Origin: a virus
Length of the DNA: 44,151 nt
Direction: 5' to 3' (one strand)
UHGV virus genome: UHGV-0181040
In this document: one piece after another, positions 1,299-40,630 of the stretch
How the letters are laid out: each line of letters begins with the position of its first letter
How positions within the stretch are numbered: the first letter of the stretch is position 1
Translations under genes and position numbers: made by a program
The notes under the pieces: model-generated
Seen by the model: only the letters and a program-made list of their open reading frames with translations
What the model was told of the DNA's origin: nothing
The model's database searches: none

Positions 1299-3608
1299 TT
1301 AATACCCCGGCTGACCGCGAGTAGAGCGGCGAGCTTTAGAAATCGGTGAGTTGTTATCCTGTAACTGCGACGCTACTGTTTCACTGATTATAATACGTAA
1401 ACGACCTTCGTCGTCACGTTCTGTTACGGCGGAATCTACGCGCCCCGTAGTGTTATTGACTATGGTGACGTTATCACCGCCGGACTGGCCACCGTTTTGC
1501 CCCATTATTTCTTTCATCTGCTGCGCGGTGCGCACACGCGATGCACCCGCGGGCATGATAACTTCTGGCTTACCACGTTCCGCGATGGTGGAAGCCTGCC
1601 CCGCAGATAACTGGCCACCTTGCTCACGCGCCGAGCGAATCTTGGCGATATTAGCCAGGCCCGCAGCAACGGCGGTAGCCGCGGCAACCGGCGCCAGGAA
1701 TGGGCCGACGACCGGTATCGCCGCAGTAGACTTATATGCTTCGATAGCTGACGTGTATGTTGCGATAGTGGCCTGGGCAATAGCAAACGCTTTATAAGCG
1801 GTGGACGCTTCACCAAATGCCGTTTTAGCATTAGCCGCCATATCACCGAAAGAACTACCTAAAGCCTCGGCTCGCTTCGTGGCGTACTGCTCATTGATGG
1901 CGTTAAGTGCCGCCTGATACTGTTCCTCGTTAATCAGCCCCTGTTCGCGGTATTTATCGGCGACAGCCAGTTTCTGCTGTTCCTGGATATCGAGAAGCTC
2001 GAGTTCAGTAGCGTTCTGGCCCATAATCTGGGCCATGAAGTCATCACCTTTCTGCTGCTTTTCCTGCTGCTCTTTTCTTTTCTTATCCAGTTCTTCCTGT
2101 CTGGCCTGCTCGGCTGTGAGCATAATTTGAGTTTTGGCGTTTTCGTACTGCTGCTGGCTTATCGTTCCGGCGCGGTTGAACTCCTCCAGTTTCGCCAGTT
2201 TCTGTTCTTCCGCCGCCGTGATGCGAGAAATTTCGTCCCCGGTTGTGCGATCGACAGTAGCCAGGAAATCTTCCGCCGCTTTTTTCTGTCGTTCAGCCGC
2301 CATTTCTTCACGTTTGGCTTGTGCCGCTAGGCGTTTCTCGTTCGATTTAGCCTCGCGGTCTGCCTTCTCTTTCTCGGTCTTATCGATGCGGGAGATGTCT
2401 TGCTGCGCTTCCGCGTCCCGGGCGGCGTTATACGCGGCTATCTGTTCTTTGGTGACAGCTTCACGTTTAGCAAACGCCTGCTTATCAAGTTCAGCTTGCG
2501 CCCGGATACGCTCACGGTCGCTTAAGATGGCGATTTGCTGGTTCTTAACGATAGCTTCGTTCTGTTCCTGGAATCTCTGCGTCGTTGAGTTGACGTTACG
2601 ACCGAGATTCTTTTGGGCCTCCGCGGCGGCATTTGCTGACTTCTCTGCGTTTTCCAGTGCCGTAGCATTTTTGTTGGCGTTGTCCGTCAGGCGGATAAGT
2701 TCCGGGTTCAACTGTTTTGTGTTACCTAGCCAGTCGGTAAACACATCGGCGATGCGACGGGCATTCTCGGCAGTTGGCTCTTTGTTAAACGCGCTCTGCG
2801 CCGCTATCATCTCCAGCGCCTGGTCACGGTTAACCCCGAACTTACTGCTAAGCTCCGCTATATTCTGCGCCAGCATGTTGACGCCTACGATGTTACCCTC
2901 GTAAGTGCCGCCAAGTTTTTCTAACGTGTCGCCTACATCCGCACCCTTAGAGACCAATGCATCGTACTGGCTAATAGCGGATGCCGTGGAGGCTTTCCAT
3001 GTCTCCCATGACTCGGCGTCCTCGCGGACAGCTTTAGCTGTTTGCTGCGCGATAAGGTCTGCGTTAGCCTTAGCCAGAGCAAGCTGAGTCTCCGCCGCTT
3101 CTCTGCTGATTTGGGTAAGCTGGATAAGGCCGTCTGTCAGTTCGAGGGAGCCAGATGCCGTTTGCTGGAAAGTATCCTTTAACTGCTTCTGCGCAGCTTC
3201 GAGGTCTTTTGAACTGCCTTCTGCTTCGGTTAGCGATTTGTACAGGACCCCGCCAACAGCCGACGCAAGAGCAATTACAGCCCCAAGCACCGCACCACCA
3301 GGGCCGAAAGCACCTGCAAGCTGCGAACCTTGTTGGCCTATTGCCACGAATGCCGACGTACCGGATTGCAACTGGACTACCATGTCCTGCACCTGGAAGC
3401 CCACCTGCCCGGCGGCGTTACGGAACTTAGCGAAACCGTCGGAGGCCGCTTTAGACGTGGCGGAGTTTACTTTATTAACGTCCGGAGTCAGCTTGTTTAC
3501 TGCGGTATCCGCACGGTCTGCAGACGACGCCATAGCGTCAAGCTGTTTGGCGGCTACGTCAGCACCTTCTGTTTTTACTCTGGCAATTAGGGAAGCCGTA
3601 TCAGCCAT
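1299..3608 (-). CDS. tail tape measure protein (about 766 aa from ATG 3608; the track ORF extends to 3623)
   Basis: Long Ala/Gln/Glu-rich coiled-coil protein with a glycine-rich hydrophobic segment (GAFGPGGAVLGAVIALASAVGGVL). Lies between the chaperone pair and the distal tail genes. RBS GAGGG before ATG 3608. Confidence 0.85.
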   Translation of the reverse strand: MADTASLIARVKTEGADVAAKQLDAMASSADRADTAVNKLTPDVNKVNSATSKAASDGFAKFRNAAGQVGFQVQDMVVQLQSGTSAFVAIGQQGSQLAGAFGPGGAVLGAVIALASAVGGVLYKSLTEAEGSSKDLEAAQKQLKDTFQQTASGSLELTDGLIQLTQISREAAETQLALAKANADLIAQQTAKAVREDAESWETWKASTASAISQYDALVSKGADVGDTLEKLGGTYEGNIVGVNMLAQNIAELSSKFGVNRDQALEMIAAQSAFNKEPTAENARRIADVFTDWLGNTKQLNPELIRLTDNANKNATALENAEKSANAAAEAQKNLGRNVNSTTQRFQEQNEAIVKNQQIAILSDRERIRAQAELDKQAFAKREAVTKEQIAAYNAARDAEAQQDISRIDKTEKEKADREAKSNEKRLAAQAKREEMAAERQKKAAEDFLATVDRTTGDEISRITAAEEQKLAKLEEFNRAGTISQQQYENAKTQIMLTAEQARQEELDKKRKEQQEKQQKGDDFMAQIMGQNATELELLDIQEQQKLAVADKYREQGLINEEQYQAALNAINEQYATKRAEALGSSFGDMAANAKTAFGEASTAYKAFAIAQATIATYTSAIEAYKSTAAIPVVGPFLAPVAAATAVAAGLANIAKIRSAREQGGQLSAGQASTIAERGKPEVIMPAGASRVRTAQQMKEIMGQNGGQSGGDNVTIVNNTTGRVDSAVTERDDEGRLRIIISETVASQLQDNNSPISKARRSTRGQPGY

Positions 3609-3972
3609 CTTCTCTGCCCTCAAATATTCCGTCTAAGCCCATGATAACCTCGGCTTCGAACAAACTTATGCCGTAACCGGCGACATCACGAAACGCTACC
3701 AAATCTTGCCATTTGAGCGCATCGCGCGGGATTATAACGATAGTATCATCTGTTTCGCGCTGTAGGAATTTAATGGCGCGGTATTTCTCGAACACGTCGA
3801 TAAGAGAAACGGGGCATTCAGGCCCCGTTGTTTCTTTTATCTGCGGTTCTTTAATCACGCCCATTGCAATCAAAGCCGCCTGGTGGCCTGCCGCGATGTC
3901 GTCAAATTGCTTACGCTTGTGGCGGTCGACAAAGCACCATTGCGCAAATTCATACAGCGCTTTTACTTTTCC
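3601..3972 (-). CDS. -1 frame extension of the chaperone (GT-like frameshift product, about 258 aa fused)
   Basis: The -1 frame is open from the slippery heptamer GGAAAAG (plus coordinates 3966..3972) through 3601, with no ATG start until far downstream. This is the classic G/GT arrangement upstream of the tape measure. The track ORF 3601..3873 starts on TTG. Confidence 0.45.
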   Translation of the reverse strand, partial: GKVKALYEFAQWCFVDRHKRKQFDDIAAGHQAALIAMGVIKEPQIKETTGPECPVSLIDVFEKYRAIKFLQRETDDTIVIIPRDALKWQDLVAFRDVAGYGISLFEAEVIMGLDGIFEGREDG

Positions 3973-4379
3973 GAGAGTTTCTCCCGGCTATCGGTGTGGT
4001 GCTTAACTACGGCTTCTGCCAACCCACTGTACTGGTCGAACAGGTTGGCCAGTGCCTCTTTGCTGAACGGTTCGTCGAATGACCAACCGGTGACGATTTC
4101 CACAGCAAGCTGCTTGTTCAGGTCCATAACCCGCCAGCCCTTCTCATCGTTGTAGCGTGCCCAGTTATTCAGCGCCTCACACTCTTTATCTAATGGTGCA
4201 AGTTCTTCCGTAAGGCGTCGAATTGCCGTTGTGTAGGCACGGCCTGCGCGAACACCTGCGTCACAATCAGGGCCGATGACCTGCAGCCATTCACCGGAGT
4301 CTTTACCACTCGGCAGAAGGATAGGCATTTTAGTACCGGCAGCGTGACGGTCTGCAAAATAAAAATCAGAAAGTTTCAT
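3963..4379 (-). CDS. tail assembly chaperone (lambda G-like)
   Basis: 138-aa acidic protein immediately upstream of the tape measure in the transcription direction. RBS AAAGGA. Ends ...REKLSEK with slippery GGAAAAG just before its stop. Confidence 0.6.
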   Translation of the reverse strand: MKLSDFYFADRHAAGTKMPILLPSGKDSGEWLQVIGPDCDAGVRAGRAYTTAIRRLTEELAPLDKECEALNNWARYNDEKGWRVMDLNKQLAVEIVTGWSFDEPFSKEALANLFDQYSGLAEAVVKHHTDSREKLSEK

Positions 4380-4486
4380 TCTTTAATCCTTTGGTTAAGA
4401 GGTTACTGGTTAAGGTTGACGCGCCAGACGGGAACCACCCGCTTTTCGTGTGCGACACTAGGCGCAAACTTATTCTAGCACACTAC

Positions 4487-4517
4487 TTGCACACCCCAAT
4501 ATAATAGGGTACTATTC
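4487..4517 (+). promoter_or_regulatory. sigma70-like promoter TTGCAC-17-TACTAT with embedded operator TAATAG-GGTA-CTATTC (regulon copy 1)
   Basis: Matches the leftward early promoter at 25925..25955 at 34 of 37 positions. 26 nt upstream of the ATG at 4544. Confidence 0.6.
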
Positions 4518-4543
4518 ACCTGTAACTTACTGAGGAAATAATT

Positions 4544-4870
4544 ATGCGTAAATTAGTATTAGCTCTGGGGTTTATGTCTTTTGCTACTTTTGGGTCCCCG
4601 TGCGGACAGGTATTTAGCGAATCTGTTCTTATGACTTCTGGTGTGCTTGATAAAGCCGACCCTACTATTGTAAAGGCATTTAAGGACTCTACAGTCCGTG
4701 AATGTGAGGCTGCCGTAGATGTCGGTAAATCAGGCCTACCTCCGCAGGCCGTAACATATACGGTAATACGTTCGGTAGAGAAAAACAGAGATGCATTCTA
4801 TAGCCTGCTGACAGCCACCCGCCTGCAAATGGTGATGACTGGCTGGGCGATAGGCGCGGAAAGTAAATAG
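4544..4870 (+). CDS. small secreted or periplasmic protein of unknown function (cargo gene)
   Basis: N-terminal signal peptide MRKLVLALGFMSFATFGSPCGQ. RBS GAGGAAATAATT. On the opposite strand to the surrounding tail genes. Confidence 0.5.
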   Translation: MRKLVLALGFMSFATFGSPCGQVFSESVLMTSGVLDKADPTIVKAFKDSTVRECEAAVDVGKSGLPPQAVTYTVIRSVEKNRDAFYSLLTATRLQMVMTGWAIGAESK

Positions 4871-4934
4871 TCGCCTTTATTTAAAGGAACGCACTGTGGT
4901 TAAATAGGACAAATCCTAAGCACGAGGAATAAGC

Positions 4935-6065
4935 ATGGCCAGGAAGAAAATAACCGACGAACAGTTGCAGGAAGAATTGAACGCCGGGATGAAGAATATC
5001 GATATCGCCCGTAAATACGGCATCTCCGACCGCGTAATTCGCATCCGTAAAGCGAAGTTGGCTAAGAAAGGTGTGGGCCACGGGCGTGATGTTAGTCATC
5101 TTGTGCCCGACGGCTACAAGATTAAAGGCACGTCGTCACTGGTGGACGAGTTCGGCAACACTAAGCTGCAATGGGTTAAGACCGACACCGATGCCGAACG
5201 TCAGGTAGAGTTGATGAAAGCCGTAATCGAAGGCATGAAGTCAGAGATTACGCCGGTTGCGCCTGTTAAAGCTGCACGCGTCAAACGCGACGATAAACTA
5301 CTCAATCTTTACACGGTATCTGATTTTCATCTCGGTATGCTGGCCTGGGCCGACGAGAGCGGCGACGACTGGGATATGAAGATTGCGGAAGACCTGTTTT
5401 CTCGCTGGTTCGATGCGGCGTTTCAGAAAGCACCAGATGCAGGAACTGGGGTTATTAATCTGCTGGGGGACTTCGCACACTTTGATAGTCTGGATGCCGT
5501 TACACCTGAGTCACGTCATGTGTTGGACGCGGATACTCGCTACCAGAAACTTGTCCGCTACATGATTCGTATGGTCCGCCGTGTTGTTGATATGGCTCTT
5601 GTTAAGCATAAAACTGTTCGCTTGCTTATCGTGCAAGGGAACCACGACGAAAGCGGAATGATTTGGTTAGCTGAGATGTTCAGGACGCTATACGACAATG
5701 AGCCTCGTGTGTTCGTCGATACGTCGCCGGATGTTTACAAGATGGTCCAACACGGCAAAACTACGCTGTTCTTTCACCACGGGCATAAAGCACGATTCGA
5801 TGTTATTGAACCGGTTATGATTGCCAAGTTCCGCAAAGCGTTCGGCGAGAGTGTTTACAGCTACGCTCACGTAGGGCACCTGCACCATCAGAAGATTGTA
5901 GAAAGCCGTAATATGATTGTTGAGCAGCATCGCACTCTCGCGGCGAAAGATGCATATGCCTCTCGCGGAGGGTGGATGTCGGGCCGTAGTGCAAACGTAA
6001 TTACTTATAGCGCCGAATATGGCGAGGTCGCACGTTTAACTATTTCACCGGAGATGCTGGGATGA
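4935..6065 (+). CDS. HTH DNA-binding domain fused to a calcineurin-like metallophosphoesterase (Mre11/SbcD-like or lambda-PPase-like fold)
   Basis: N-terminus IDIARKYGISDRVIRIRKAK is HTH-like. All five metallophosphoesterase motifs are present in order: DFHLG, GDFAHFD, GNHDE, HHGH, GHLHH. Confidence 0.7.
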   Translation: MARKKITDEQLQEELNAGMKNIDIARKYGISDRVIRIRKAKLAKKGVGHGRDVSHLVPDGYKIKGTSSLVDEFGNTKLQWVKTDTDAERQVELMKAVIEGMKSEITPVAPVKAARVKRDDKLLNLYTVSDFHLGMLAWADESGDDWDMKIAEDLFSRWFDAAFQKAPDAGTGVINLLGDFAHFDSLDAVTPESRHVLDADTRYQKLVRYMIRMVRRVVDMALVKHKTVRLLIVQGNHDESGMIWLAEMFRTLYDNEPRVFVDTSPDVYKMVQHGKTTLFFHHGHKARFDVIEPVMIAKFRKAFGESVYSYAHVGHLHHQKIVESRNMIVEQHRTLAAKDAYASRGGWMSGRSANVITYSAEYGEVARLTISPEMLG

Positions 6066-6292
6066 CTTCAAAATATGACCGCACAATGACAAATACCCAC
6101 GGCAGCACTATGACAGTAGACGTTTATGACGTTCTAAGGGCCTTCGACATCCGTGACCCGGCGCTACAGCACGCATTGAAGAAGTTATTGTGCATGGGCC
6201 TTCGCGGCCACAAAGATACCGGAACAGACTTAGCTGAGGCAATAGAAAGTCTGGAGAAGTTACGGGAGTATCGAAGCAACATTGATGAATAA
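6062..6292 (+). CDS. hypothetical protein, translationally coupled to the phosphoesterase gene
   Basis: ATGA start/stop overlap with the upstream gene. 76 aa. Followed by a terminator. Confidence 0.4.
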   Translation: MTSKYDRTMTNTHGSTMTVDVYDVLRAFDIRDPALQHALKKLLCMGLRGHKDTGTDLAEAIESLEKLREYRSNIDE

Positions 6293-6295
6293 GAA

Positions 6296-6321
6296 AAGGC
6301 CCCGAAAGGGGCCTTAGTTTT
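6296..6321. terminator. bidirectional rho-independent terminator AAGGCCCC-GAAA-GGGGCCTT
   Basis: 8-bp GC stem flanked by an A-tract upstream and a T-tract downstream. Lies between the convergent cargo cassette and the major tail gene. Confidence 0.65.
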
Positions 6322-7492
6322 ATGCGTAGGTGATACGCTGGATAACAATAGATGACTGGTACTGGTTGCCGGTAGCCTGGCCTTCGATGGACTGAGTGAT
6401 TGACTCTGGCCCGCCAATCTCTGGCGTAACCGCTGTAAGTTCTGCGCGTTTCAGACTAAAGGACATAGCCCCGTTTACCCCGGCCAGAATAGAGTTAATC
6501 TCTACCTGCTGCTCGTTGATAAACTTCTGAATCATCGCCATGTCGTACAGCTTGCCGGAGATAGAGAACGTGTTAGCCGCGCGGCTACGTTCCACAAACG
6601 CTACGTTAGTGTTGCCAAGTTCGAACTGCGCCGACGCGCTGTTGTCGTTGGTGATGGTCAGGCTGTCGCAGCGCAACGGCGTAGAGCCGTCGAACACGGA
6701 AACGTCAACTGAGGAGAACGGCTCGTCACCAAACGTAACAGAGGAGAAATTAGAACCGGTCGGCGGCGTAGTGAGAATCTCCTGATTGCGACCGATGAAT
6801 GGGAAGCTGCCAGTTACCATCGCGTTAACCGCCTGTTCGATGGTAAAACCAGAAACTTCCACGCCTTTGGTTAACGTGTACGCGTCAGTACCGCCGCACT
6901 GGCCTTTGTACCAGGTAAGGATAGAGAACGTCTTACACGTGTTACCGGTTTCCAGCGTGTCGCCAGTTTTAGCCTTACTAGTTTTTGTCTCGGTGGTCAG
7001 GGTGTGTTGGATGCCTGCACCAGTAACAACGGTAGCCGTTACTGCGGTAACAATAAATGGTTTTGCGTTATCGCCTGTTAAGTCGGTAAACGCAATCAGG
7101 TCGCCTACCCCAACTCCGTCAGTGATAAAACTGCCGGTAGCGCGTGTGAACGTCTTTCCCGCGGGTGCGACGGTAATCGATAGCCCTGACAGAGAAACAC
7201 CGGATTGCCACGTAGAGCCTAAAGCGCCCGCCAGCCAGTCGTCCTGGCTTTTCGAGCTAAGCTCAATTGCGTATTCCCCGCTGACCTGCTTGTTACCGGT
7301 GCGGATGGATGTGGTTTCACGGCTGCCGTCCAGTTCGTTGGAGGTCAGTGTGTCGCGGGTAATGGCGGGAACGCCGCCCGTGTTACGCAACGGCGACCAG
7401 ACCGGGTTAGTCGGTGTTACGCCCGGGGTCACTTCCGCCACATAGAATTGCGCGGTATTCGCGCCCTTAAAAGGAGTTGTAGCCATATTCAC
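6320..7492 (-). CDS. major tail (tube) protein
   Basis: 390-aa Thr/Gly/Ser-rich protein. In transcription order it sits next to the chaperones and tape measure, downstream of a tail-terminator-sized gene. Confidence 0.55.
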   Translation of the reverse strand: MNMATTPFKGANTAQFYVAEVTPGVTPTNPVWSPLRNTGGVPAITRDTLTSNELDGSRETTSIRTGNKQVSGEYAIELSSKSQDDWLAGALGSTWQSGVSLSGLSITVAPAGKTFTRATGSFITDGVGVGDLIAFTDLTGDNAKPFIVTAVTATVVTGAGIQHTLTTETKTSKAKTGDTLETGNTCKTFSILTWYKGQCGGTDAYTLTKGVEVSGFTIEQAVNAMVTGSFPFIGRNQEILTTPPTGSNFSSVTFGDEPFSSVDVSVFDGSTPLRCDSLTITNDNSASAQFELGNTNVAFVERSRAANTFSISGKLYDMAMIQKFINEQQVEINSILAGVNGAMSFSLKRAELTAVTPEIGGPESITQSIEGQATGNQYQSSIVIQRITYA

Positions 7493-13055: not shown

Positions 13056-13086
13056 TTGCAGGCACCAATATAATAGGGTACTATTC
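13056..13086 (+). promoter_or_regulatory. promoter TTGCAG-17-TACTAT with operator TAATAG-GGTA-CTATTC (regulon copy 2)
   Basis: A 36-nt block nearly identical to copy 3 at 15227..15257. 24 nt upstream of the HNH ATG. Confidence 0.6.
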
Positions 13087-13109
13087 AGTTAACTTAAACA
13101 GGGGGTTTT

Positions 13110-13649
13110 ATGCTCACTAAACGTTCAGAAGCAATAGCCGCTGGCGATGATTATTACTTCACGGGAAAACCGTGTAAACGTGGGCATGTCGCGAAAAGGC
13201 ATGTCCGCACCGGGTGCTGTGAGTGCACTAAAGAGATACAAAAATCGTACCGAGAACGCAACGTTGTTTCTTGGGCGGCTAAAAACGCAAAATGGAGGCG
13301 AGAAAATAAAGACCGAATAGCTGAAATTGACGCAGAGTACCGTAAGAAAAACAAAACCGCCAGGAAAGCCCAAAGGCTGAAGTATAAAACGGCAAAAAGA
13401 GCCAGGAGTATAAACATCAGGAATGATGAATTTGACCTATTAGTATTCGAAGAAGCGCAGGAGCTATGTCAACTGCGAGCGGGCGAAACAGGTTTCTTAT
13501 GGCATATCGACCACATGCTGCCGCTGCGTGCTAAAACTGTCTCTGGGCTGCATGTCGCAGAAAACATACAAGTTATCCCTGCGGTTCTTAATCTCTTAAA
13601 AGGTAATAAATTAATTTTCACCGAGAGAGGCTCTTGGTTGGCTTCCTGA
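13110..13649 (+). CDS. HNH homing-type endonuclease
   Basis: Cys-rich N-terminus CKRGHVAKRHVRTGCCECTK and HNH core HIDHMLPLRAKTVSGLHVAENIQVIPAVLNLLKGNK. Free-standing on the opposite strand inside the head gene block. Confidence 0.75.
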   Translation: MLTKRSEAIAAGDDYYFTGKPCKRGHVAKRHVRTGCCECTKEIQKSYRERNVVSWAAKNAKWRRENKDRIAEIDAEYRKKNKTARKAQRLKYKTAKRARSINIRNDEFDLLVFEEAQELCQLRAGETGFLWHIDHMLPLRAKTVSGLHVAENIQVIPAVLNLLKGNKLIFTERGSWLAS

Positions 13650-13653
13650 AATT

Positions 13654-13678
13654 AAGGCCCCATAACGGGGCCTTTTAT
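13654..13678. terminator. bidirectional terminator AAGGCCCC-ATAAC-GGGGCCTT
   Basis: Same stem as the 6296, 15621 and 38544 hairpins, followed by TTTAT. Confidence 0.6.
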
Positions 13679-14139
13679 CATTCAGGCTTCGTAACCTTCG
13701 CCGCTTTGCTTACGGCCTCTACACCATCGGCATCAGTAACTTTAACGAAGTATTCACCAACCGCGTTAACCGTCAGGGACAAGGCCTCTTCTGGAGCGTT
13801 TACCACTTCCTTACCGTCCTTATACCAGGTCAGGGTATATGGCGCTTTGCCCGCCTTAACTTCGACAGTGATGGCCGCGTTGCCGTCTGCCAGTTCAGCG
13901 TCTTTCGGTTGCACAGAGAAATACACATCGCCTGCGTCCGCCAGATACGGAATTTCGTAAAGCATACCCGCCGCAGGCAACGCAATACCGGTCTTGTCTG
14001 CAAACGGCATATCGTCTACTGGTGTACCCAGTACACTTTCGTCTTCAATAAACACCACGTTCTCACCAGAACCGGACACGCGAGCGTACTGGACAACACG
14101 GCGCGATGGCACATCAGTTACTTTAAAAAAGCCCATCAT
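13678..14139 (-). CDS. Ig-like (I-set) domain protein, possible decoration or accessory protein
   Basis: C-terminal motif YTLTWYKDGKEVVNAPEEALSLTVNAVGEYFVKVTDADG. ATGA coupling to the upstream head morphogenesis gene. Confidence 0.45.
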   Translation of the reverse strand: MMGFFKVTDVPSRRVVQYARVSGSGENVVFIEDESVLGTPVDDMPFADKTGIALPAAGMLYEIPYLADAGDVYFSVQPKDAELADGNAAITVEVKAGKAPYTLTWYKDGKEVVNAPEEALSLTVNAVGEYFVKVTDADGVEAVSKAAKVTKPE

Positions 14140-15239
14140 TATTCCCCTTTCAGATAATCAGCAACACGTTTATCGAGTTCCGCCATCTGCTTAAGCGTCA
14201 GCGGATTCCCAAAACCATCTACAGATATTACGCGAAACTCTTCCGGCGATATACCGCTGTTACGGAAAATCTTACCGCGAACAGGGCCAAGCGCCTGGTC
14301 CTGAAACCACGCCGGTTGTTGTTTCAGGAACTCGTAATAGGTGGTGTCCGCGCTTACCTGGGTACCGCCGTTCGCACCCTTAGCCGTGCGTTTTGCACCT
14401 TTATCGAGGAAGTCGAACTCGGAACTTATCACCGGGGCTGTGGTACTTCGACAATTTGGATGCGCTGGCGGCATCGGACCCTTACCGATTTCCCACGTCA
14501 TTCCGTCTCTGGCCCTGCAAATCGTACTGGTGCGGCTGTCCAGCGTTGACACCCACTCGTACTTCTCGATAATGTCGTCGTTCTGGCGATACGTCTCGTT
14601 ACGGGCTTCGTTGGATATGTGGGACAGCGCGGTGCGGATTACTGTAGCTGCATTACGCTCGGAGATGTCCGCCAGCCCACCAGCGCCAACAACATTCTTA
14701 ACAATCTGCCGTGTTGTCTGGCCTTGTACAAAGCCCATCTTAACGCCGGTTACAAGGCGCGATACTTCAGTTTCACCCCAGCCTGACATCAGCTTAGTGA
14801 AGTCAACAGGCTTGTCACTTAGCGACAGCGGCTGAAACTCAGCTGCGGCCCATACCTGTTCGGCGGTGGGTGTAACAAATTCCGCGTTAACGTTGGTGGT
14901 CAGCGTTTTTACGTTCCACTCCGCCTCATACGCCGCCAGTTCCTTGAGGTCTTCTGTCAGCTTTGTTTGCCAGTCACCAGTAAGTCCTGTCAGTGCTTCT
15001 TCGAGGTCGCGTAACAATTTATTCAGTCGCGCTGTGCTACGACCATCGTCACCGAATAACAGCACCTGCTGTTTGATTTCGTCCCGCATTTCCCGAATGA
15101 ATGGTGCGAGGTCTTTCACTTCACCAGATGCGGTGCGTTGCAGCCATATCTGGTGGCTGATTAGGGATGTAAGTAAGCTCATAGGCCCTCCTGTAGTATC
15201 GCCAGTGTAACGCATAAAAATAATATTTGCAGACACCAA
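14139..15239 (-). CDS. head morphogenesis protein (Mu gpF / SPP1 gp7-like)
   Basis: C-terminal TSTICRARDGMTWEIGKGPMPPAHPNCRSTT signature. Directly downstream of the portal gene. Confidence 0.7.
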   Translation of the reverse strand: MVSANIIFMRYTGDTTGGPMSLLTSLISHQIWLQRTASGEVKDLAPFIREMRDEIKQQVLLFGDDGRSTARLNKLLRDLEEALTGLTGDWQTKLTEDLKELAAYEAEWNVKTLTTNVNAEFVTPTAEQVWAAAEFQPLSLSDKPVDFTKLMSGWGETEVSRLVTGVKMGFVQGQTTRQIVKNVVGAGGLADISERNAATVIRTALSHISNEARNETYRQNDDIIEKYEWVSTLDSRTSTICRARDGMTWEIGKGPMPPAHPNCRSTTAPVISSEFDFLDKGAKRTAKGANGGTQVSADTTYYEFLKQQPAWFQDQALGPVRGKIFRNSGISPEEFRVISVDGFGNPLTLKQMAELDKRVADYLKGE

Positions 15240-15257
15240 TATAATAGGGTACTATTC
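15227..15257 (+). promoter_or_regulatory. promoter TTGCAG-17-TACTAT with operator TAATAG-GGTA-CTATTC (regulon copy 3)
   Basis: Near-identical to copy 2. 30 nt upstream of the ATG at 15287, with RBS AGAGGAGGAA. Confidence 0.6.
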
Positions 15258-15286
15258 AGTTAAACGACAAAGAGGAGGAATAAAAC

Positions 15287-15616
15287 ATGATTAATGCTAA
15301 AGAAGAGTTGCTCGCCCATCTGGATGGTAAAGATGTAGTTAAATGCGCCTGGTTTGCGGACTATGATGCGGATGACGCGGATTACGATTTCGTTGAGGGG
15401 AGTAAATGGCTCCTGCGGGAGAATTACTCCCGCGGAGAATGGGAAAGCCTAATGGCTGAACTTGATTTTGAATATCACAACGGTCACGGCATTCAAAACT
15501 TCTTCGGGGTAATTTGGTACGAAGATGGTACATGGTCTTCTCGCGGAGAATACGATGGTTCTGAATGGTGGGAATATAATGTCGTGCCGGATATGCCGGA
15601 AGAACTTAAGCGCTAA
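15287..15616 (+). CDS. small highly acidic Trp/Tyr-rich protein; candidate DNA-mimic-type anti-restriction or anti-defence protein (cargo gene)
   Basis: 109 aa, rich in D/E and W (ADYDADDADYDFVEGSKWLL..., EWWEYNVVPDMPEE). Has its own operator-controlled promoter and terminator. On the opposite strand between the portal and head morphogenesis genes. Confidence 0.45.
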   Translation: MINAKEELLAHLDGKDVVKCAWFADYDADDADYDFVEGSKWLLRENYSRGEWESLMAELDFEYHNGHGIQNFFGVIWYEDGTWSSRGEYDGSEWWEYNVVPDMPEELKR

Positions 15617-15620
15617 AATT

Positions 15621-15645
15621 AAGGCCCCTTTCGGGGCCTTTTCTT
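15621..15645. terminator. bidirectional terminator AAGGCCCC-TTTC-GGGGCCTT
   Basis: GC stem plus TTTTCTT. Lies between the convergent acidic-protein and portal genes. Confidence 0.65.
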
Positions 15646-17137
15646 ATTGCTGCTGTTGGCCTTGCGGAGATTGTTCCTGTCTTGCTGTAGCAGGAATCTC
15701 TCCAGCCACCTGAGCAACAGTACCTAACGGCAGCGGTGCGTCTTCGATAGCGCTCTGAATATCCTCGTCGGTCCAGTCAGTTACGCCCGCCTTACGCAAT
15801 GCTGCGTAGTATGCGGTAGCTGGTAGCAGGCCTGCGTTAATATCCGCCATCCACTGTGCACGGTCCTGAGCGGTCATTGGCTGCAGGAAGAACTCCATAT
15901 TCAGTTTGAACTCGATTTCAGTACCGTCACTAAGCCCTAGCATCGCTGCTACCCAGCGCAGCGCATCGGTATACGCCATACTTACATTACGTGCAATTGT
16001 CGCCATAACGGACGTATCTGCGCCGCGTTGCAGGCGGGCTGATTCAGCGGTGATTTGCTGCGTCGGGGTGATAAGCTGCGCGCCAATCTGGATTGCCTGA
16101 TTCTCTTTATCCAGCATGTTCTGTTTGGCGAGGTTGTTCTCTCCGGCCTGGACAAGAAACGCATTGCCGCCGTAGCCAATGTTATGGCCCGAACGTGAAC
16201 CCATGCGCACGCCGTGTGGGTTGGCTTCGGCCCACTGTTCCATGCTCATATTCTCACCAGGGGCGATGAACAGAGTGGGCTGGCCTACAACGAAGCTGGA
16301 CTCCTCATTGTCCGCGCTGTTGCGGAAATGTCCGATGTTTAGCTCAGCCAACGGCAGCAAAGGTGCATCGTCGATGGTCGCATCGTTGTTGCTCGCCCCA
16401 ATGAACGTGAAGGGAATTTTGCCGCGCAGCTGTTCTCCGAGTTCCGGGAAGATTTCGATTACGTCACCCTGAGCACCACCTTCGGCGTCGAAGCGGTAAA
16501 TGCGCTGGCGGTAGCGCCCGTCAATCAAATCGAGAACGCGGTATTGTTCGCCGAATTTTGTTTCGAACTCCGCGCCCGGTTCTGAGTATTCCCACACCTC
16601 ACGCAGCACGACCGTTGTCACACGGTTAACAGAACCGATGCGTGTCAGTCGCCAGTTGATGATGTTCTCTGCGGTATAGAATGCGATTACCGGGTTTAAT
16701 AACCCCGCGTTCTGCTCTGCCGCCGTTGCCGCGGCTGTCTCTGGGGCGTCCACCAGCAACCCGCCGCGGCCAACCGAGTCAATCTCCATCAGCGTGTCCT
16801 GCGCGTGCTGCCACAACCCGACACCAGAACCGTCGGCATTACGTAACAGGTACTCCAGTTCAGGCGGGATAATTTGCTCGGGGTCTTTACGCATCACTGA
16901 CCCCACCATCCCGGCCAGAGTACGTTTGGTGAAGTTGTAGCAGATAGCGCCGTTCTCATATTCTTCCTGGCGCTGCGCAGCGTAGGTAGGGTCCGGCTCG
17001 TTCTTCCCGACGTTGCGAAGATAGCGGATAAGGTCGCCTTCCAGCGCGTGGCGTACCTTCTGCCATTTATCGAAGTGGTGCAGCCATTCCCGGTGTTTTG
17101 TCTTAACACCCTGATTCTGACCGTTCATAGTTAACAT
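15644..17137 (-). CDS. portal protein
   Basis: 497 aa, immediately downstream of the terminase large subunit; size and position are typical. Confidence 0.75.
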   Translation of the reverse strand: MLTMNGQNQGVKTKHREWLHHFDKWQKVRHALEGDLIRYLRNVGKNEPDPTYAAQRQEEYENGAICYNFTKRTLAGMVGSVMRKDPEQIIPPELEYLLRNADGSGVGLWQHAQDTLMEIDSVGRGGLLVDAPETAAATAAEQNAGLLNPVIAFYTAENIINWRLTRIGSVNRVTTVVLREVWEYSEPGAEFETKFGEQYRVLDLIDGRYRQRIYRFDAEGGAQGDVIEIFPELGEQLRGKIPFTFIGASNNDATIDDAPLLPLAELNIGHFRNSADNEESSFVVGQPTLFIAPGENMSMEQWAEANPHGVRMGSRSGHNIGYGGNAFLVQAGENNLAKQNMLDKENQAIQIGAQLITPTQQITAESARLQRGADTSVMATIARNVSMAYTDALRWVAAMLGLSDGTEIEFKLNMEFFLQPMTAQDRAQWMADINAGLLPATAYYAALRKAGVTDWTDEDIQSAIEDAPLPLGTVAQVAGEIPATARQEQSPQGQQQQ

Positions 17138-25924: not shown

Positions 25925-25955
25925 GAATAGTATCCTATTATGTTGGGGTGTGCAA
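25925..25955 (-). promoter_or_regulatory. leftward early promoter TTGCAC-17-TACTAT with operator GAATAG-TATC-CTATTA (regulon copy 5)
   Basis: The reverse complement matches copy 1 (4487..4517) at 34 of 37 positions. Confidence 0.6.
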
Positions 25956-29138: not shown

Positions 29139-29342
29139 ACCGAACGCTAGCCACTTGGCGTCTACTTCCAGCACCTCCGCCAGTTTAAACAGCGTCGCCG
29201 GGCGGACATCCTGAGTTACACCGAGTGCCAGTTGGTTAATCGCTCCCTGGGAAACTCCGGCCAGCACAGCCAGACGGCGCTGGGAGATGCCGAGTTCTTT
29301 ACGGCGTTGCTCTACACGGATGCCTAGTTCAGATGGTTGCAT
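29127..29342 (-). CDS. XRE-family (Cro/CI-like) HTH regulator
   Basis: The 71-aa sequence contains LGISQRRLAVLAGVSQGAINQL. Transcribed divergently from the second rightward operon. RBS AAGGAG. Confidence 0.7.
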   Translation of the reverse strand: MQPSELGIRVEQRRKELGISQRRLAVLAGVSQGAINQLALGVTQDVRPATLFKLAEVLEVDAKWLAFGEGA

Positions 29343-29371
29343 GTTAATTACTCCTTAGTCAGTTGATATGT

Positions 29372-29387
29372 GAATAGTACCATATTA
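29372..29387 (-). promoter_or_regulatory. operator GAATAG-TACC-ATATTA overlapping the presumed promoter of the XRE gene (regulon copy 6)
   Basis: About 30 nt upstream of the XRE ATG. A TACTAT -10-like hexamer lies on the minus strand within the site. Confidence 0.5.
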
Positions 29388-29406
29388 ATTATTTTAAGAA
29401 AGCCCA

Positions 29407-29435
29407 TTGACACGTGAATAGTCCGCTATTATAGT
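29407..29435 (+). promoter_or_regulatory. strong rightward promoter TTGACA-17-TATAGT with operator GAATAG-TCCG-CTATTA in the spacer/-10 (regulon copy 7)
   Basis: Consensus -35 and exact 17-bp spacer. 32 nt upstream of the ATG at 29467. Confidence 0.6.
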
Positions 29436-29466
29436 TAGCCCATACCAAACGAGAGGAGAGAAACAA

Positions 29467-29976
29467 ATGCTAGACCAATTCTTAAAATTACTGGAACGTT
29501 TCGTAGTTGCCCATGAACTGATGGCTGCAAATAGTGTGAAACGGCCGGTGCAGCCGACTGAGTGTGTAGGTGAAATGCTTGTAGATGTATCGGTTACGGG
29601 AGAGGTGCTTGAAGTCGACCCAGGTACGGGCGTCGGGAAAGAAATCCCGGTCGAAGGTGAAGACATCGTTGACGCTAAACCCGCGGAAGAAGAGAAGCCG
29701 AAACGCAAGCCGCGTAAACCTAAAGTAGAGGAACCGACGCCAGAACCGGAAGAAGAGAAAGAAGAGGTAGATTACCAGTCTCTTCGTGACCAGATTCAGG
29801 CTATCGACGATGCGATTAACGAAGGTCCTAGCGATGCCGCGTGTGATGATTCCGATGAACTGTTGGAAGAGTTCACCGGTAAGAAGATGAAGATTGCCGC
29901 GATTAAAGACGAAGACCTGGCCGAATATCTGGAACGCCTGACGGCAATCAAGAACAAGTATTTCGAAGAAGAATAA
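29467..29976 (+). CDS. promoter-proximal very acidic protein with a central KPKRKPRKPK patch (candidate DNA mimic or replication accessory)
   Basis: 169 aa with long D/E runs (PEPEEEKEEVDYQSL...DDSDELLEEF). Confidence 0.4.
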   Translation: MLDQFLKLLERFVVAHELMAANSVKRPVQPTECVGEMLVDVSVTGEVLEVDPGTGVGKEIPVEGEDIVDAKPAEEEKPKRKPRKPKVEEPTPEPEEEKEEVDYQSLRDQIQAIDDAINEGPSDAACDDSDELLEEFTGKKMKIAAIKDEDLAEYLERLTAIKNKYFEEE

Positions 29977-38406: not shown

Positions 38407-38542
38407 ACATCATGGCCCCGATTCCGGCATTGCAAAAACGTATCAAGGAACTTGAAGAGGAGGTTCTACGACTACGACAGCAGAGAGACGCTGCCAATGC
38501 GCAACTGTCGTTTGTACTGGAGAAGTTATCAGAAGAGTAGAG

Positions 38543-38571
38543 AAAAGGCCCCGTTTGGGGCCTTAGTTTTA
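38543..38571. terminator. bidirectional terminator AAAAGGCCCC-GTTT-GGGGCCTT separating the replication operon from the convergent tailspike gene
   Basis: T-tract on both strands. Confidence 0.65.
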
Positions 38572-38575
38572 ACGA

Positions 38576-40630
38576 CTAAATAACTAACAAATTAAATCCT
38601 AAATCAACCTGACCGCCAGTATTATTAAAAGTTGAAACCGTAACAGAATAATCAGAAGATTTAACCACAGTTGCGTATCTCCCTGAACCGCCATCAAACG
38701 TTACCGTCACCACTGAAGAAGCTATGCTCCCGGTGAAATTTATAACATACACGCCGGTTGCGGTTTTTGATATAGAAGCAACGTTTTGCATCGCAGCCCC
38801 GACCCCGGCAGCGTTAACTATTGCTTTAGCGACAGGCTGAGAAGGACCAATTCTTTGGACCTTTTCCATGCCAGAAAATGGAGACGAAAGAGAGTATTTA
38901 TTACCTGAGTCATTAAACACAAGGTGGGAAACTCCAAATGTTGACGGGACGGCGAATTGAACGTTACGGTAAGCAGTGGATGCAGACCCTAAGTTATAGA
39001 ATCCATTGCCGTCCATATTAAGTATTGCTTGCAGACCTGCTGACATGTCAGAAAGATTTGACTGTACCAGTATTCTTGATGCTAACTCTGTACCGGAGTT
39101 ATGGTTAAAGATGCACGAAGATACGTTCATTATCTGATTGAAGTTTCTATTAACATAGAAACTAATATCTTTCCCTGTATTATTGTTTTCAAAGTAGCAA
39201 TTATCAAAATGAGCGGCATTAGCTCCAGCGCCACCAATAAGCGCGAACTGCACACAAGAGTTAAATGTAATTGGGGTGGAGTTTGCGTATGATTTGCCGC
39301 CGTTTGTTTCGAACGCGCACGAGTCGATTTTCCATGCGTGAGCGTGCTGGTTCTCTATGCAAAATTCCGCGTTGTTCTGGAAATCGCATCGGTACAGTCC
39401 GACTGCGTTTGGGCCAGAAAGTTCCCCAAGTCGGCCTTGTATGGCTGTTTTGTTGTAAGTAAATCGACAGTTATCAAACTTAAGGTACAAAGAGTCCGTC
39501 AGCTTGCATCCAATCTCAAAACCATCTATTAGCACATTTCGCATTGCCAAGCGTATGCATTTGTTAAACAGAATCCCAAATCCAGACCAATCAGCCCTGT
39601 TCCCACTTGAATCCACTGATTTTATTGTCAGATTTTCCACCGGGAACGCTGAGAATGTAGATAAAGACCCGTCAAAATAAATCCCGTAATTTGACGACGA
39701 CGTTGCGGTAGATAGAATGCTCACAACAGAAGACTTCTCATCTCCCCCTCGGATATACGCTACCTTTCCACCTTCTCGTTGGTGCATAGGGATGGAAACT
39801 GGGGATTTAAAATTGACGATATTCTCTGGAAATTTAAACCCAAGCGCGTTTTTTCCTGCGTATGCGATGGCCTTATTGAAATGTGGTGATAGATCTATGT
39901 TAGAGTCCGGGTTCCCTGACATCCCGTACATAGCCCCCGTTACCTCCGAAACCCCACGTCTAACCCAGCAACCAAATCCTGAGGGGTTAGTTTCCCCCAC
40001 CCCGGATATATAATCAGCGGAGTTAGCGTCCGACGTATAGGGGACAGATGGTGATATTATAATCCCGCCGTCGTGGTTCGCTGTCGGCATCGTGGCGTCG
40101 TAGTAAAAGTACCCGCCGCCGGTATCTGCCCCCTCATACCAACTATTTAGATATACGTTACCGTCGCCGACGGGTGCTAGCCCGTAAAACATAGACATGG
40201 AATTAACAGTTCCAATAATTGTTCCTCCGTTGGCCGCCGACAGGTCGTCACGTAAATATGGGTCCGTCTGCGGTTTCCAGTCGGCGTTCCCGACAGGGTT
40301 AAATCCAGCAGGCGCCGTAACAGGAAGTGTACCCGCGTATGAGTACCAAGTCTTACTAACAGGGTCATACACCACTTTATCACGGCCATTAGCGGTTAGC
40401 GTACCGCCAGTGGAGAAGTCCCATGCCACGGGTGAAAAGCCAGCATCGCGTAACACCGCCGGGAGCGTCTTCTGTGTCTGCCCTGTAATCTGATTAGTTG
40501 CATAATCGATATCAGCGCCACCAGCAACGCCGCCGGATTTGCCAGTGATAACCTCGGCTTCGAAAATCTGGTGTTTCTTGGCGGTTTGTAAATCCGCCAG
40601 GCTTAAAACGTCACCGCATCCGCTTGACAT
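38576..40630 (-). CDS. tailspike protein (conserved N-terminal phage tailspike/fibre domain plus beta-helix depolymerase-like body)
   Basis: N-terminal YSYAGTLPVTAPAGFNPVGNADWKPQTDPYLRDDL resembles the shared N-domain of K1F endosialidase and T5 L-shaped fibre type. The central region is Asn/Gly/Ser-rich with beta-helix repeats. Confidence 0.6.
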   Translation of the reverse strand: MSSGCGDVLSLADLQTAKKHQIFEAEVITGKSGGVAGGADIDYATNQITGQTQKTLPAVLRDAGFSPVAWDFSTGGTLTANGRDKVVYDPVSKTWYSYAGTLPVTAPAGFNPVGNADWKPQTDPYLRDDLSAANGGTIIGTVNSMSMFYGLAPVGDGNVYLNSWYEGADTGGGYFYYDATMPTANHDGGIIISPSVPYTSDANSADYISGVGETNPSGFGCWVRRGVSEVTGAMYGMSGNPDSNIDLSPHFNKAIAYAGKNALGFKFPENIVNFKSPVSIPMHQREGGKVAYIRGGDEKSSVVSILSTATSSSNYGIYFDGSLSTFSAFPVENLTIKSVDSSGNRADWSGFGILFNKCIRLAMRNVLIDGFEIGCKLTDSLYLKFDNCRFTYNKTAIQGRLGELSGPNAVGLYRCDFQNNAEFCIENQHAHAWKIDSCAFETNGGKSYANSTPITFNSCVQFALIGGAGANAAHFDNCYFENNNTGKDISFYVNRNFNQIMNVSSCIFNHNSGTELASRILVQSNLSDMSAGLQAILNMDGNGFYNLGSASTAYRNVQFAVPSTFGVSHLVFNDSGNKYSLSSPFSGMEKVQRIGPSQPVAKAIVNAAGVGAAMQNVASISKTATGVYVINFTGSIASSVVTVTFDGGSGRYATVVKSSDYSVTVSTFNNTGGQVDLGFNLLVI

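Follow-up and report, generated by a model that had tools for sequence, protein, structure and literature searches.

An accessory island with a metallophosphoesterase gene on the opposite strand of the tail operon in a Kagunavirus-type phage genome

Layout of the island and variability of its slot

The virus genome UHGV-0181040 (44,151 nucleotides, analysed over its whole length and hereafter called the window) carries a unit of three genes on the plus strand, placed between the minus-strand genes for the tail tube and for a tail-assembly chaperone (TAC) (positions 4487-6321, Table 1). The three open reading frames (ORFs) of this island encode a protein with a signal peptide (ORF1), a protein that combines a helix-turn-helix (HTH) with all five metallophosphoesterase motifs (ORF2) and a protein of 76 residues (ORF3). 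A preliminary description had pictured the locus as just such a unit, antisense to the late operon and encoding a secreted protein, an HTH-phosphoesterase and a small protein, and every feature that it described was found in place. At the nucleotide level, the 1951-bp region 4380-6330 is 80-92% identical to its matches in 239 phage records, which come almost entirely from Escherichia Kagunavirus and Salmonella Jersey-like phages, and these matches, together with the flanking tail genes, identify the window as a Guernseyvirinae genome of the Kagunavirus type, of roughly 44 kb.

The genes had also been described as coupled or closely spaced, and indeed ORF1 and ORF2 are separated by 64 nt, while the start of ORF3 overlaps the stop of ORF2 in an ATGA; a GAGGA ribosome-binding site lies 6-7 nt 5' of ORF1 and of ORF2. 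The sign of both the GC skew and the AT skew reverses across the island. Purifying selection on each of the three genes is strong, with ratios of nonsynonymous to synonymous substitution rates (dN/dS) of 0.01-0.09 against Kagunavirus and Jerseyvirus orthologues (0.04-0.09 for ORF1 and 0.01-0.08 for ORF3) at dS values of up to 2. A hairpin between ORF1 and ORF2 was no better than that of shuffled sequence (z -0.5), and Rfam and tRNA scans of the window gave no match. The terminator, which had been called bidirectional, is a hairpin with U-tracts on both strands (-19.6 kcal/mol on the plus strand, z = -4.1, and -15.5 kcal/mol on the minus strand; z about -4), the better tract lying on the minus strand, where it serves the tube gene. 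A 31-nt copy of this terminator (6292-6322), 90% identical, is present at the opposite end of the block of tail genes (38541-38571), after the tailspike-region gene 38576-40630.

Table 1. Features of the island, of the neighbouring tail genes and of the candidate regulator gene in the window.
Feature	Position	Strand	Description
Sigma-70-type promoter	4487-4515	+	-35 TTGCAC (4487-4492), 17-nt spacer, -10 TACTAT (4510-4515); read from sequence
Palindrome AATAGGGTACTATT, 14 bp	4503-4516	both	overlaps the -10 element; putative operator
ORF1, 108 aa	4544-4870	+	phrog_14165, E 4e-53, function unknown
ORF2, 376 aa	4935-6065	+	GerE/LuxR-like HTH (~8-44), beta-hairpin/helix linker (~61-104), binuclear metallophosphoesterase domain (~119-376)
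ORF3, 76 aa	6062-6292	+	translationally coupled to ORF2; matches C-terminal part of phrog_2452 (E 4e-36) and other PHROGs
Bidirectional intrinsic terminator AAGGCCCCGAAAGGGGCCTT	6296-6315	both	GC-rich 8-bp hairpin; scan of both strands; common to the convergent tail tube gene
Tape measure protein	1299-3623	-	
Tail assembly chaperone	3601-3873	-	Phage_TAC_18
Tail-assembly chaperone	3963-4379	-	Phage_TAC_4
Tail tube protein	6320-7492	-	Phage_tube_2, E 2.5e-37
XRE/DicA-like HTH gene, 71 aa	29127-29342	-	

We catalogued the content of the slot that separates the tube gene from the chaperone gene in 80 IMG/VR contigs with a tube homologue (64-99% identity), where it ranged from empty (93-184 bp) to 3.1 kb. 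Many of the loci held a single small gene, and eight were empty. In Kagunavirus and Jerseyvirus the slot is a mosaic: ORF1, an Imm-like gene or a YebO-like gene in the first position is followed by ORF2, then by ORF3, by an HNH gene and ORF3, by a 66-aa ORF and ORF3 or by a HAD phosphatase and a P-loop kinase, and lastly by nothing, an Ant/Rha anti-repressor gene or an HNH gene. The annotated genomes of K1H, G AB-2017, NTEC3, Jersey, celemicas and VLCpiS11a agree with this survey. Two complete genomes, those of Klebsiella phage VLCpiS11a and Salmonella phage FSL SP-031, contain no tblastn-level homologue of ORF1, ORF2 or ORF3, the slot of the latter holding a remote gene of the ORF1 superfamily that was detected by profile comparison only. 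The slot is an insertion hot spot whose contents are dispensable, separable modules, and because it varies among relatives and two complete genomes have neither ORF2 nor ORF3, we regard the island as accessory cargo. The earlier proposal of a moron-like insertion is thereby upheld across the 80 loci. The three genes recombine independently of one another and do not make up a single co-evolving system.

Like the morons of lambdoid phages, the island has its own promoter, genes and terminator between two late genes and is present, absent or variable among relatives; unlike them, it resides in a virulent phage, runs antisense to the operon, and, in place of expression from a prophage, is probably driven by an early/middle class of promoters that belongs to the phage. 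That the three genes have a structural or assembly function in the tail has next to no probability in our view: the one point in its favor is where they lie, with the tube gene on one side and the chaperone gene on the other, and against it they lie on the opposite strand with a promoter and terminator of their own, in a slot that is empty in eight relatives whose tube proteins are 64-70% identical, match no tail-related family, and, in the case of ORF2, have homologues outside the structural modules of phages T1, JK16 and 'rolling'.

The island matched no catalogued defence or anti-defence module: searches with the PADLOC-DB models found no family for ORF1, ORF2 or ORF3 at E values up to 0.01, and NCBIfam gave no informative match to the three proteins. 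Many deposited genomes already contain near-identical islands, in which the proteins are annotated as hypothetical or as metallophosphoesterases, and the BASEL and Guernseyvirinae literature holds only annotation-level remarks on the Imm-like and Ant genes and nothing further on the island. We considered the CRISPRi-ART fitness data of phage PTXU04 as a proxy for essentiality in Kagunavirus and left them unused, as its gene content and the limited relation of its proteins to known ones, on which its authors remark, did not fit a Kagunavirus. As accessory islands go, this one is real but fairly ordinary.

Two sister islands lie on the plus strand within the late operon of the window (13056-13682 and 15227-15648), each with its own GC-rich hairpin terminator similar to that at 6296-6315; one encodes a 179-aa EndoVII-like protein (phrog_1035, E 5e-30) and the other a protein of 109 aa whose function is unknown (phrog_3972). 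At comparable positions phage Jersey carries, on the opposite strand, genes for a homing endonuclease and an amidase. In several relatives of the window phage, HNH homing endonuclease genes with HNH_3 and AP2 domains are found between ORF2 and ORF3 or after ORF3 (NTEC3, locus L004, 4184-4654, and loci L015, L022, L034, L038, L042, L048 and L049), and the ORF2/ORF3 junction appears to be a homing site.

A promoter class with a shared palindrome

The predicted transcription start of the island is near 4522. Its promoter is identical in Bas76, K1H, G AB-2017 and NTEC3, and at the equivalent place in phage Jersey, upstream of the Jersey ORF1 orthologue, TTGCAT-17-TATTAT is found within diverged surrounding sequence. 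The promoter is embedded in a 19-nt motif, TATAATAGGGTACTATTCA, which occurs eight times in the window at up to three mismatches (0.00 expected). Three copies are perfect (4500, 13069 and 15240), each of them 5' of a plus-strand island within the minus-strand late operon, and five copies have a TTGCA at the same distance.

The palindrome that overlaps the -10 element has the core AATAG-N4-CTATT, which is present in nine copies in the window against 0.01 expected and in four copies in phage Jersey, each at a promoter-like site and three of them annotated as promoters. In the window it falls in the spacer/-10 region of TTGACx-17-TATAxT promoters 5' of the operon that starts at 29467, of the block encoding the single-stranded DNA-binding protein (SSB) and DNA polymerase (32146 onward) and of the block around 35698, within TTGCAC-type promoters of leftward small-gene operons at 25926 and 24208, and 5' of the XRE gene, where copies were located at 29373-29386 (one mismatch) and 29417-29430. 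Since the half-sites are conserved and the centre and register are not, the palindrome fits a protein-binding site, and the XRE protein is the obvious candidate to bind it. The island would then belong to a regulator-controlled class of early or middle promoters, although promoter activity, expression timing and operator occupancy are all what we infer from these sequence elements. The preliminary description had assigned the island an operator-controlled promoter, and this stands as plausible, with the same palindrome found at the promoters of a small XRE regulator gene and of replication genes.

Two further observations concern these elements. The control region 29342-29467, in which the minus-strand XRE/DicA-like gene and the plus-strand operon diverge with two operator copies between them, resembles a cro/cI-type switch, which is an unusual layout in a phage that is taken to be strictly virulent. 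On the minus strand, the operator of the island also lies in the spacer of a GTTACA-17-TATATT element (4498-4526) directed at the chaperone, tape-measure and distal tail genes. Its layout matches the replication-gene promoters TTGACx-N4-AATAG-N4-CTATT-ATAxT, and, given that the tube gene ends in a good minus-strand terminator, it could be a restart promoter that shares its operator with the island promoter; it matches the consensus at only 9/12 positions and was not above background in our scan.

ORF2, a divergent metallophosphoesterase with an HTH

An AlphaFold model of ORF2 (predicted local distance difference test, pLDDT, 92) consists of a three-helix HTH, a flexible linker, a beta-hairpin with a helix and a catalytic sandwich, at the residues given in Table 1. 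The alpha/beta sandwich matches solved members of the calcineurin-like/Mre11 type, the nearest folds being PolD DP1, Mre11 and SbcD. The five metallophosphoesterase motifs (D-x-H, G-D, G-N-H-D/E, H and G-H-x-H) are all present, and the residues that constitute them, D130/H132, G178/D179, G235/N236/H237(D238), H282/H284 and G314/H315/H317, are invariant or at least 90% conserved across 51 diverse homologues. ORF2 is thus a divergent member of the metallophosphoesterase superfamily, a membership that rests on motifs and fold. Compared with Mre11/SbcD and DP1, its sequence identity is only 12-16%, its N-terminal HTH is an addition and its domain map has no separate capping domain after the catalytic domain.

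The preliminary description had not recognised the gene combination as any defence or anti-defence module; the set is not, however, wholly new or unrecognisable, as ORF2 belongs to a very large family. It matches phrog_704, labelled 'DNA repair exonuclease', over residues 4-375 (profile 2-389 of 390, E 1e-165), and in BLASTP it is 45% identical to ST16 of phage T1 over residues 1-375 (E 2e-114), the N-terminal HTH included. The family numbers 4580 representative clusters at 50% identity, 1139 of them at E below 1e-30, and is found in 2038 phage records that include Guernseyvirinae, Dhillonvirus, Drexlerviridae and Vibrio, Rhodobacter, Campylobacter and N4-like phages. The ST16/PHROG 704 proteins of Drexlerviridae, Dhillonvirus and Guernseyvirinae agree with ORF2 in length, motifs and full-length homology; they differ in setting, as the homologues in T1, JK16 and 'rolling' share the strand of their neighbours and lie near lysis, terminase or replication genes, whereas ORF2 sits in an opposite-strand island of the tail operon. 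In Drexlerviridae and Dhillonvirus the neighbours of the family are ordinary early or lysis-proximal genes. A Foldseek search against viral models returned uncharacterised homologues only, and the literature searched held no experimental characterisation of the family.

Taking the fold and the sequence features together, we consider that ORF2 is probably a DNA nuclease that acts early in infection. Several observations favor the host chromosome as its target, with salvage of the nucleotides released. First, ORF2 has an HTH that would bind DNA. Second, islands of the K1H type carry, directly 3' of ORF2, a gene for a PNKP-type HAD 3'-phosphatase (HAD_PNKP, E 7e-20) followed by one for a P-loop protein resembling deoxynucleoside monophosphate (dNMP) kinases (phrog_139), and T1 has homologues of both. 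Third, T1 and phage TLS degrade host DNA and reuse its nucleotides, the responsible gene being still unidentified as of 2024 (PMC11447400), and T1 possesses a full-length homologue of ORF2. Lastly, there are precedents that serve by analogy only: an early mycobacteriophage metallophosphoesterase, A10ZJ24 Gp48, is a DNase that destroys the host chromosome (PMC12287305), and T5 A1 is annotated as involved in or required for host DNA degradation. Both are early phage proteins of the same superfamily, with sizes and architectures that differ from those of ORF2 and with no HTH.

The same fold and family label would also suit an enzyme whose substrate is the phage DNA itself and which, in the manner of Mre11/SbcD, opens hairpins or resects ends for recombination-dependent replication or concatemer processing, in which case the island would be a displaced piece of the replication module. 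The nearest folds, which include the PolD proofreading subunit, are in line with this, as are the places of the Dhillonvirus homologue just 5' of the terminase genes and of the Drexlerviridae homologue after helicase, VRR-NUC and methylase genes, the EndoVII-like resolvase encoded by one sister island and the strong conservation of the family across many lytic siphoviruses. Nonetheless, we judge this explanation unlikely: neither the large early proteins of the window that were scanned nor the annotated Jersey genome includes a Rad50/SbcC-like SMC ATPase as a partner, the phage already has a PD-(D/E)XK exonuclease and an Enc34/Gp2.5-like annealing/SSB pair, and complete Guernseyvirinae genomes with the same replication module have no ORF2, so that ORF2 is dispensable for replication.

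The phosphatase and kinase genes of the K1H-type islands can be read in yet another way, namely that ORF2 is an end-healing enzyme or a nucleotide phosphohydrolase and not a DNA nuclease. It might be a 2',3'-cyclic phosphodiesterase/phosphatase of the Pnkp calcineurin type, or a hydrolase of deoxynucleoside tri- or diphosphates (dNTP/dNDP) or of signalling nucleotides, and might, with the sibling phosphatase and kinase, repair RNA cut by host anticodon nucleases or counter nucleotide-based immunity. Clostridium thermocellum Pnkp and lambda phosphatase use a calcineurin-type fold for 2',3'-cyclic phosphodiesterase activity. In addition, a calcineurin-plus-HAD pair forms the two-step dNTP hydrolase of a defence system (PMC12871103). 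We hold this explanation to be decidedly improbable: the island of the window, unlike its siblings, has neither the HAD nor the kinase gene of a polynucleotide kinase-phosphatase pathway, no RNA or DNA ligase was found among ten replication-region, lysis and other non-structural proteins scanned or in Jersey, the sibling kinase matches dNMP kinases and not the kinase of PNK, ORF2 matches no PADLOC or anti-defence family, and its N-terminal HTH and DP1/Mre11-like top matches favor a DNA substrate.

The HTH itself could suggest that ORF2 is mainly a transcription regulator or a protein phosphatase, which would bind AATAG-N4-CTATT and gate the promoter class while its phosphoesterase domain senses or modifies a ligand or protein. 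The HTH is GerE/FixJ-like (E 0.01-0.02), a PHROG labelled 'late transcriptional activator' gave a weak match (E 9e-4), and the XRE protein is so far only a candidate for the palindrome's binding protein. Yet it is the gene for this small dedicated XRE/DicA-like repressor that adjoins two operator copies, phages without ORF2 exist, and the catalytic motifs are invariant across the 51 homologues, which points to catalysis as the selected function of ORF2; we attach very little probability to a mainly regulatory role.

Two side observations pertain to ORF2. A comparison of celemicas (locus L008, 2851-4005) with Jersey (locus L009, 2892-4022) belongs to the first: within Jerseyvirus there are two ORF2 lineages, one ~88% and the other ~55-60% identical to ORF2 of the window, and a Kagunavirus-like contig (L034) has the ~55-60% lineage, which suggests gene exchange between genera. 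The window also encodes a C5-cytosine DNA methyltransferase (PF00145, 35937-36860), and, should ORF2 attack host DNA, phage-specific methylation is conceivable as a mark of self versus host, which is pure speculation.

ORF1, ORF3 and the proposed role of the island

ORF1 has the features of an exported protein: the N-terminus is basic, the core that comes next is hydrophobic, and small residues mark a cleavage site after G17 (signal peptide ~1-17), which would leave a mature protein of ~91 aa with two invariant cysteines, Cys20 and Cys54. Its AlphaFold2 model contains helices only (pLDDT 82). No match to ORF1 was found in Pfam, the PDB or PADLOC, and in tblastn it occurs in 99 phage records, compared with ~495 that have tube homologues of at least 60% identity. 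The family nevertheless is broader, at the level of sequence profiles, than BLAST suggests, as ORF1 is homologous to secreted two-cysteine slot proteins of Cornellvirus-like relatives (hhalign 97.2%, E 4.5e-11, 100 columns, a score to which the signal peptides contribute). With these and other single slot proteins it shares the signal peptide, both cysteines, a C-x-S/A...G-V/L-S/P motif and a terminal G-W/Y-A-x-G. The ORF1 superfamily thus comprises predicted exported, two-cysteine helical proteins that are promoter-proximal in the tube/TAC slot across Guernseyvirinae.

In most of 18 representative loci that we inspected, the promoter-proximal slot gene encodes a protein with a signal peptide, a lipobox or a transmembrane segment, be it of the ORF1 superfamily, an Imm_superinfect protein, a YebO-like single-pass protein or a lipoprotein with a canonical lipobox. 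Genes of the Imm family (PF14373) occupy the exact position of ORF1 in ~19 of 29 close Kagunavirus contigs and also in Jerseyviruses; a sibling-phage protein at this position matches PF14373 at E 2e-15, above the curated cut-off, and a Jerseyvirus annotation reads the Imm-like gene as superinfection immunity (PMC9409062). As Imm-like, YebO-like or lipoprotein genes hold this position in sibling phages, ORF1 may act in superinfection exclusion or envelope protection, a role that we put, by analogy of position, at about an even chance. The preliminary description had mentioned exclusion among the functions of such insertions, and for ORF1 this gains plausibility from the bona fide Imm_superinfect proteins in its place. 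T4 Imm, T5 Llp and the Cor proteins of T1 and phi80 are small envelope-targeted exclusion proteins of lytic phages, and ORF1 is likewise predicted to be targeted to the envelope; T1 cor is, moreover, an opposite-strand gene where the block of tail genes ends. Unlike these proteins, to which it has no similarity in sequence or structure, ORF1 is predicted to be soluble and exported and not a transmembrane protein or lipoprotein. It did not match the Imm_superinfect profile (PF14373), having a cleavable signal peptide instead of a transmembrane helix, and showed no similarity in sequence or fold to the solved structures of T4 Spackle. In some distant relatives the sole slot gene encodes a small cysteine-rich lipoprotein with an LSGC or LAGC lipobox (L052, 3845-4099; L056, 1283-1552), which recalls T5 Llp and T1 Cor.

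ORF3 carries the conserved motif KY...DVYDVL.AF...PA.QHALKK...G.RGHK....DL.EAI and matches 774 phage records in tblastn, with no match in Pfam or the PDB. Two matches from outside Guernseyvirinae that were examined, in Seuratvirus VogelGryff and in Acinetobacter phages, are C-terminal domains of longer proteins. As ORF3 is coupled to ORF2 and is replaced by nucleotide enzymes in sibling islands, it points loosely to a role in nucleic-acid or nucleotide metabolism. The VogelGryff protein, bas25_0038 (L011, 2126-2683; 185 aa, of which the C-terminal 50 residues are ORF3-like), is encoded within a 7-deazaguanine DNA-modification cluster, between the genes for a YhhQ-like transporter and QueD, a context which gives a hint that nucleotides or DNA are what the ORF3 domain handles.

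Other identities for ORF3 were rejected. A domain like DUF3310, which forms the C-terminal part of the T7 gp1.7 nucleotide kinase, was not supported, although one GenBank record gives the DUF3310 label to a gene covered by the match to the island, presumably the ORF3 homologue, as neither ORF3 nor its 22 homologues matched PF11753, which T7 gp1.7 itself matches at E 4.5e-23, and hhalign against T7 gp1.7 gave a probability of 0.2%. Nor is ORF3 what a deletion left of the kinase or phosphatase genes of K1H, to which BLASTP found no similarity, and it represents a conserved family of its own; the small gene 3' of the Dhillonvirus ORF2 homologue showed no similarity to it.

The explanation that we favor, and rate at somewhat better than an even chance, is an accessory island of the moron type with its own promoter, in which ORF1 serves exclusion, ORF2 is a host-DNA nuclease and ORF3 is accessory. 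Most likely, host RNA polymerase would transcribe the island from its sigma-70 promoter, which would be of the same palindrome-bearing class as those of the regulator and replication genes, and transcription would stop at the hairpin shared with the tube gene. ORF1 would be exported by Sec and its signal peptide cut after about residue 17, giving a ~10-kDa helical periplasmic protein, presumably disulfide-bonded, that may guard the envelope of the infected cell against secondary infection. The GerE-like HTH of ORF2 would tether an Mre11/SbcD/DP1-like two-metal phosphodiesterase to DNA, where it would most likely act as an exo- or endonuclease early in infection, the host chromosome being the favored target, with host shut-off and nucleotide salvage as the outcome. 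ORF3, whose synthesis would keep pace with that of ORF2 via translational coupling, may be a small protein that assists or partners nucleic-acid or nucleotide metabolism.

The analysis has shown the anatomy of the island, its conservation, the variability of its slot, the fold of ORF2 and its intact active-site motifs. Several points weigh against the favored explanation. ORF2 scores below the Pfam gathering cut-offs for PF00149 and PF12850 (22.0 bits against 27 and 19.1 against 21.5). Its similarity to Bxb1 gp47 (of the Gp48 type) and to T5 A1 is at the level of motifs only, and with hhalign probabilities of just 5% and 19% we rejected a common family, so that Gp48 and T5 A1 are analogies and not family-level homologues. 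ORF3 is found away from ORF2 in other phages and need not be its dedicated partner. Lastly, timing, operator control, export, nuclease activity with its target and the exclusion role are all parts of the explanation that we infer.

A wider joint claim, that enzymes of the ST16 type degrade the host chromosome in T1-like phages, Dhillonvirus and Kagunavirus and that the ORF1 superfamily is a new class of periplasmic exclusion proteins, without structural precedent and interchangeable with T4-Imm-like ones, is more doubtful, and we advance it tentatively. At present, the island can be classed by its architecture as accessory and of the moron type, with ORF2 in a known but uncharacterised phage family and ORF1 in an orphan family.

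Kagunavirus and Jerseyvirus phages are common candidates for therapy and biocontrol, and knowledge of their dispensable cargo aids the minimisation and engineering of their genomes, for which nature appears to offer, in the tube/chaperone slot, a site that tolerates insertions and comes with a promoter and a terminator ready for use. The main value of the island lies in this engineering site and in two testable hypotheses, that ORF2/ST16 is a host-DNA nuclease and that the ORF1 superfamily is a new exclusion factor. If ORF1 does act in exclusion, the few exclusion proteins that have been characterised from lytic phages would be joined by one with a new fold, which would be relevant to the design of phage cocktails. 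If ORF2 does degrade host DNA, this would give a function to a family present in ~2000 sequenced phages and would answer an old question about T1 that was still open in 2024 (PMC11447400).

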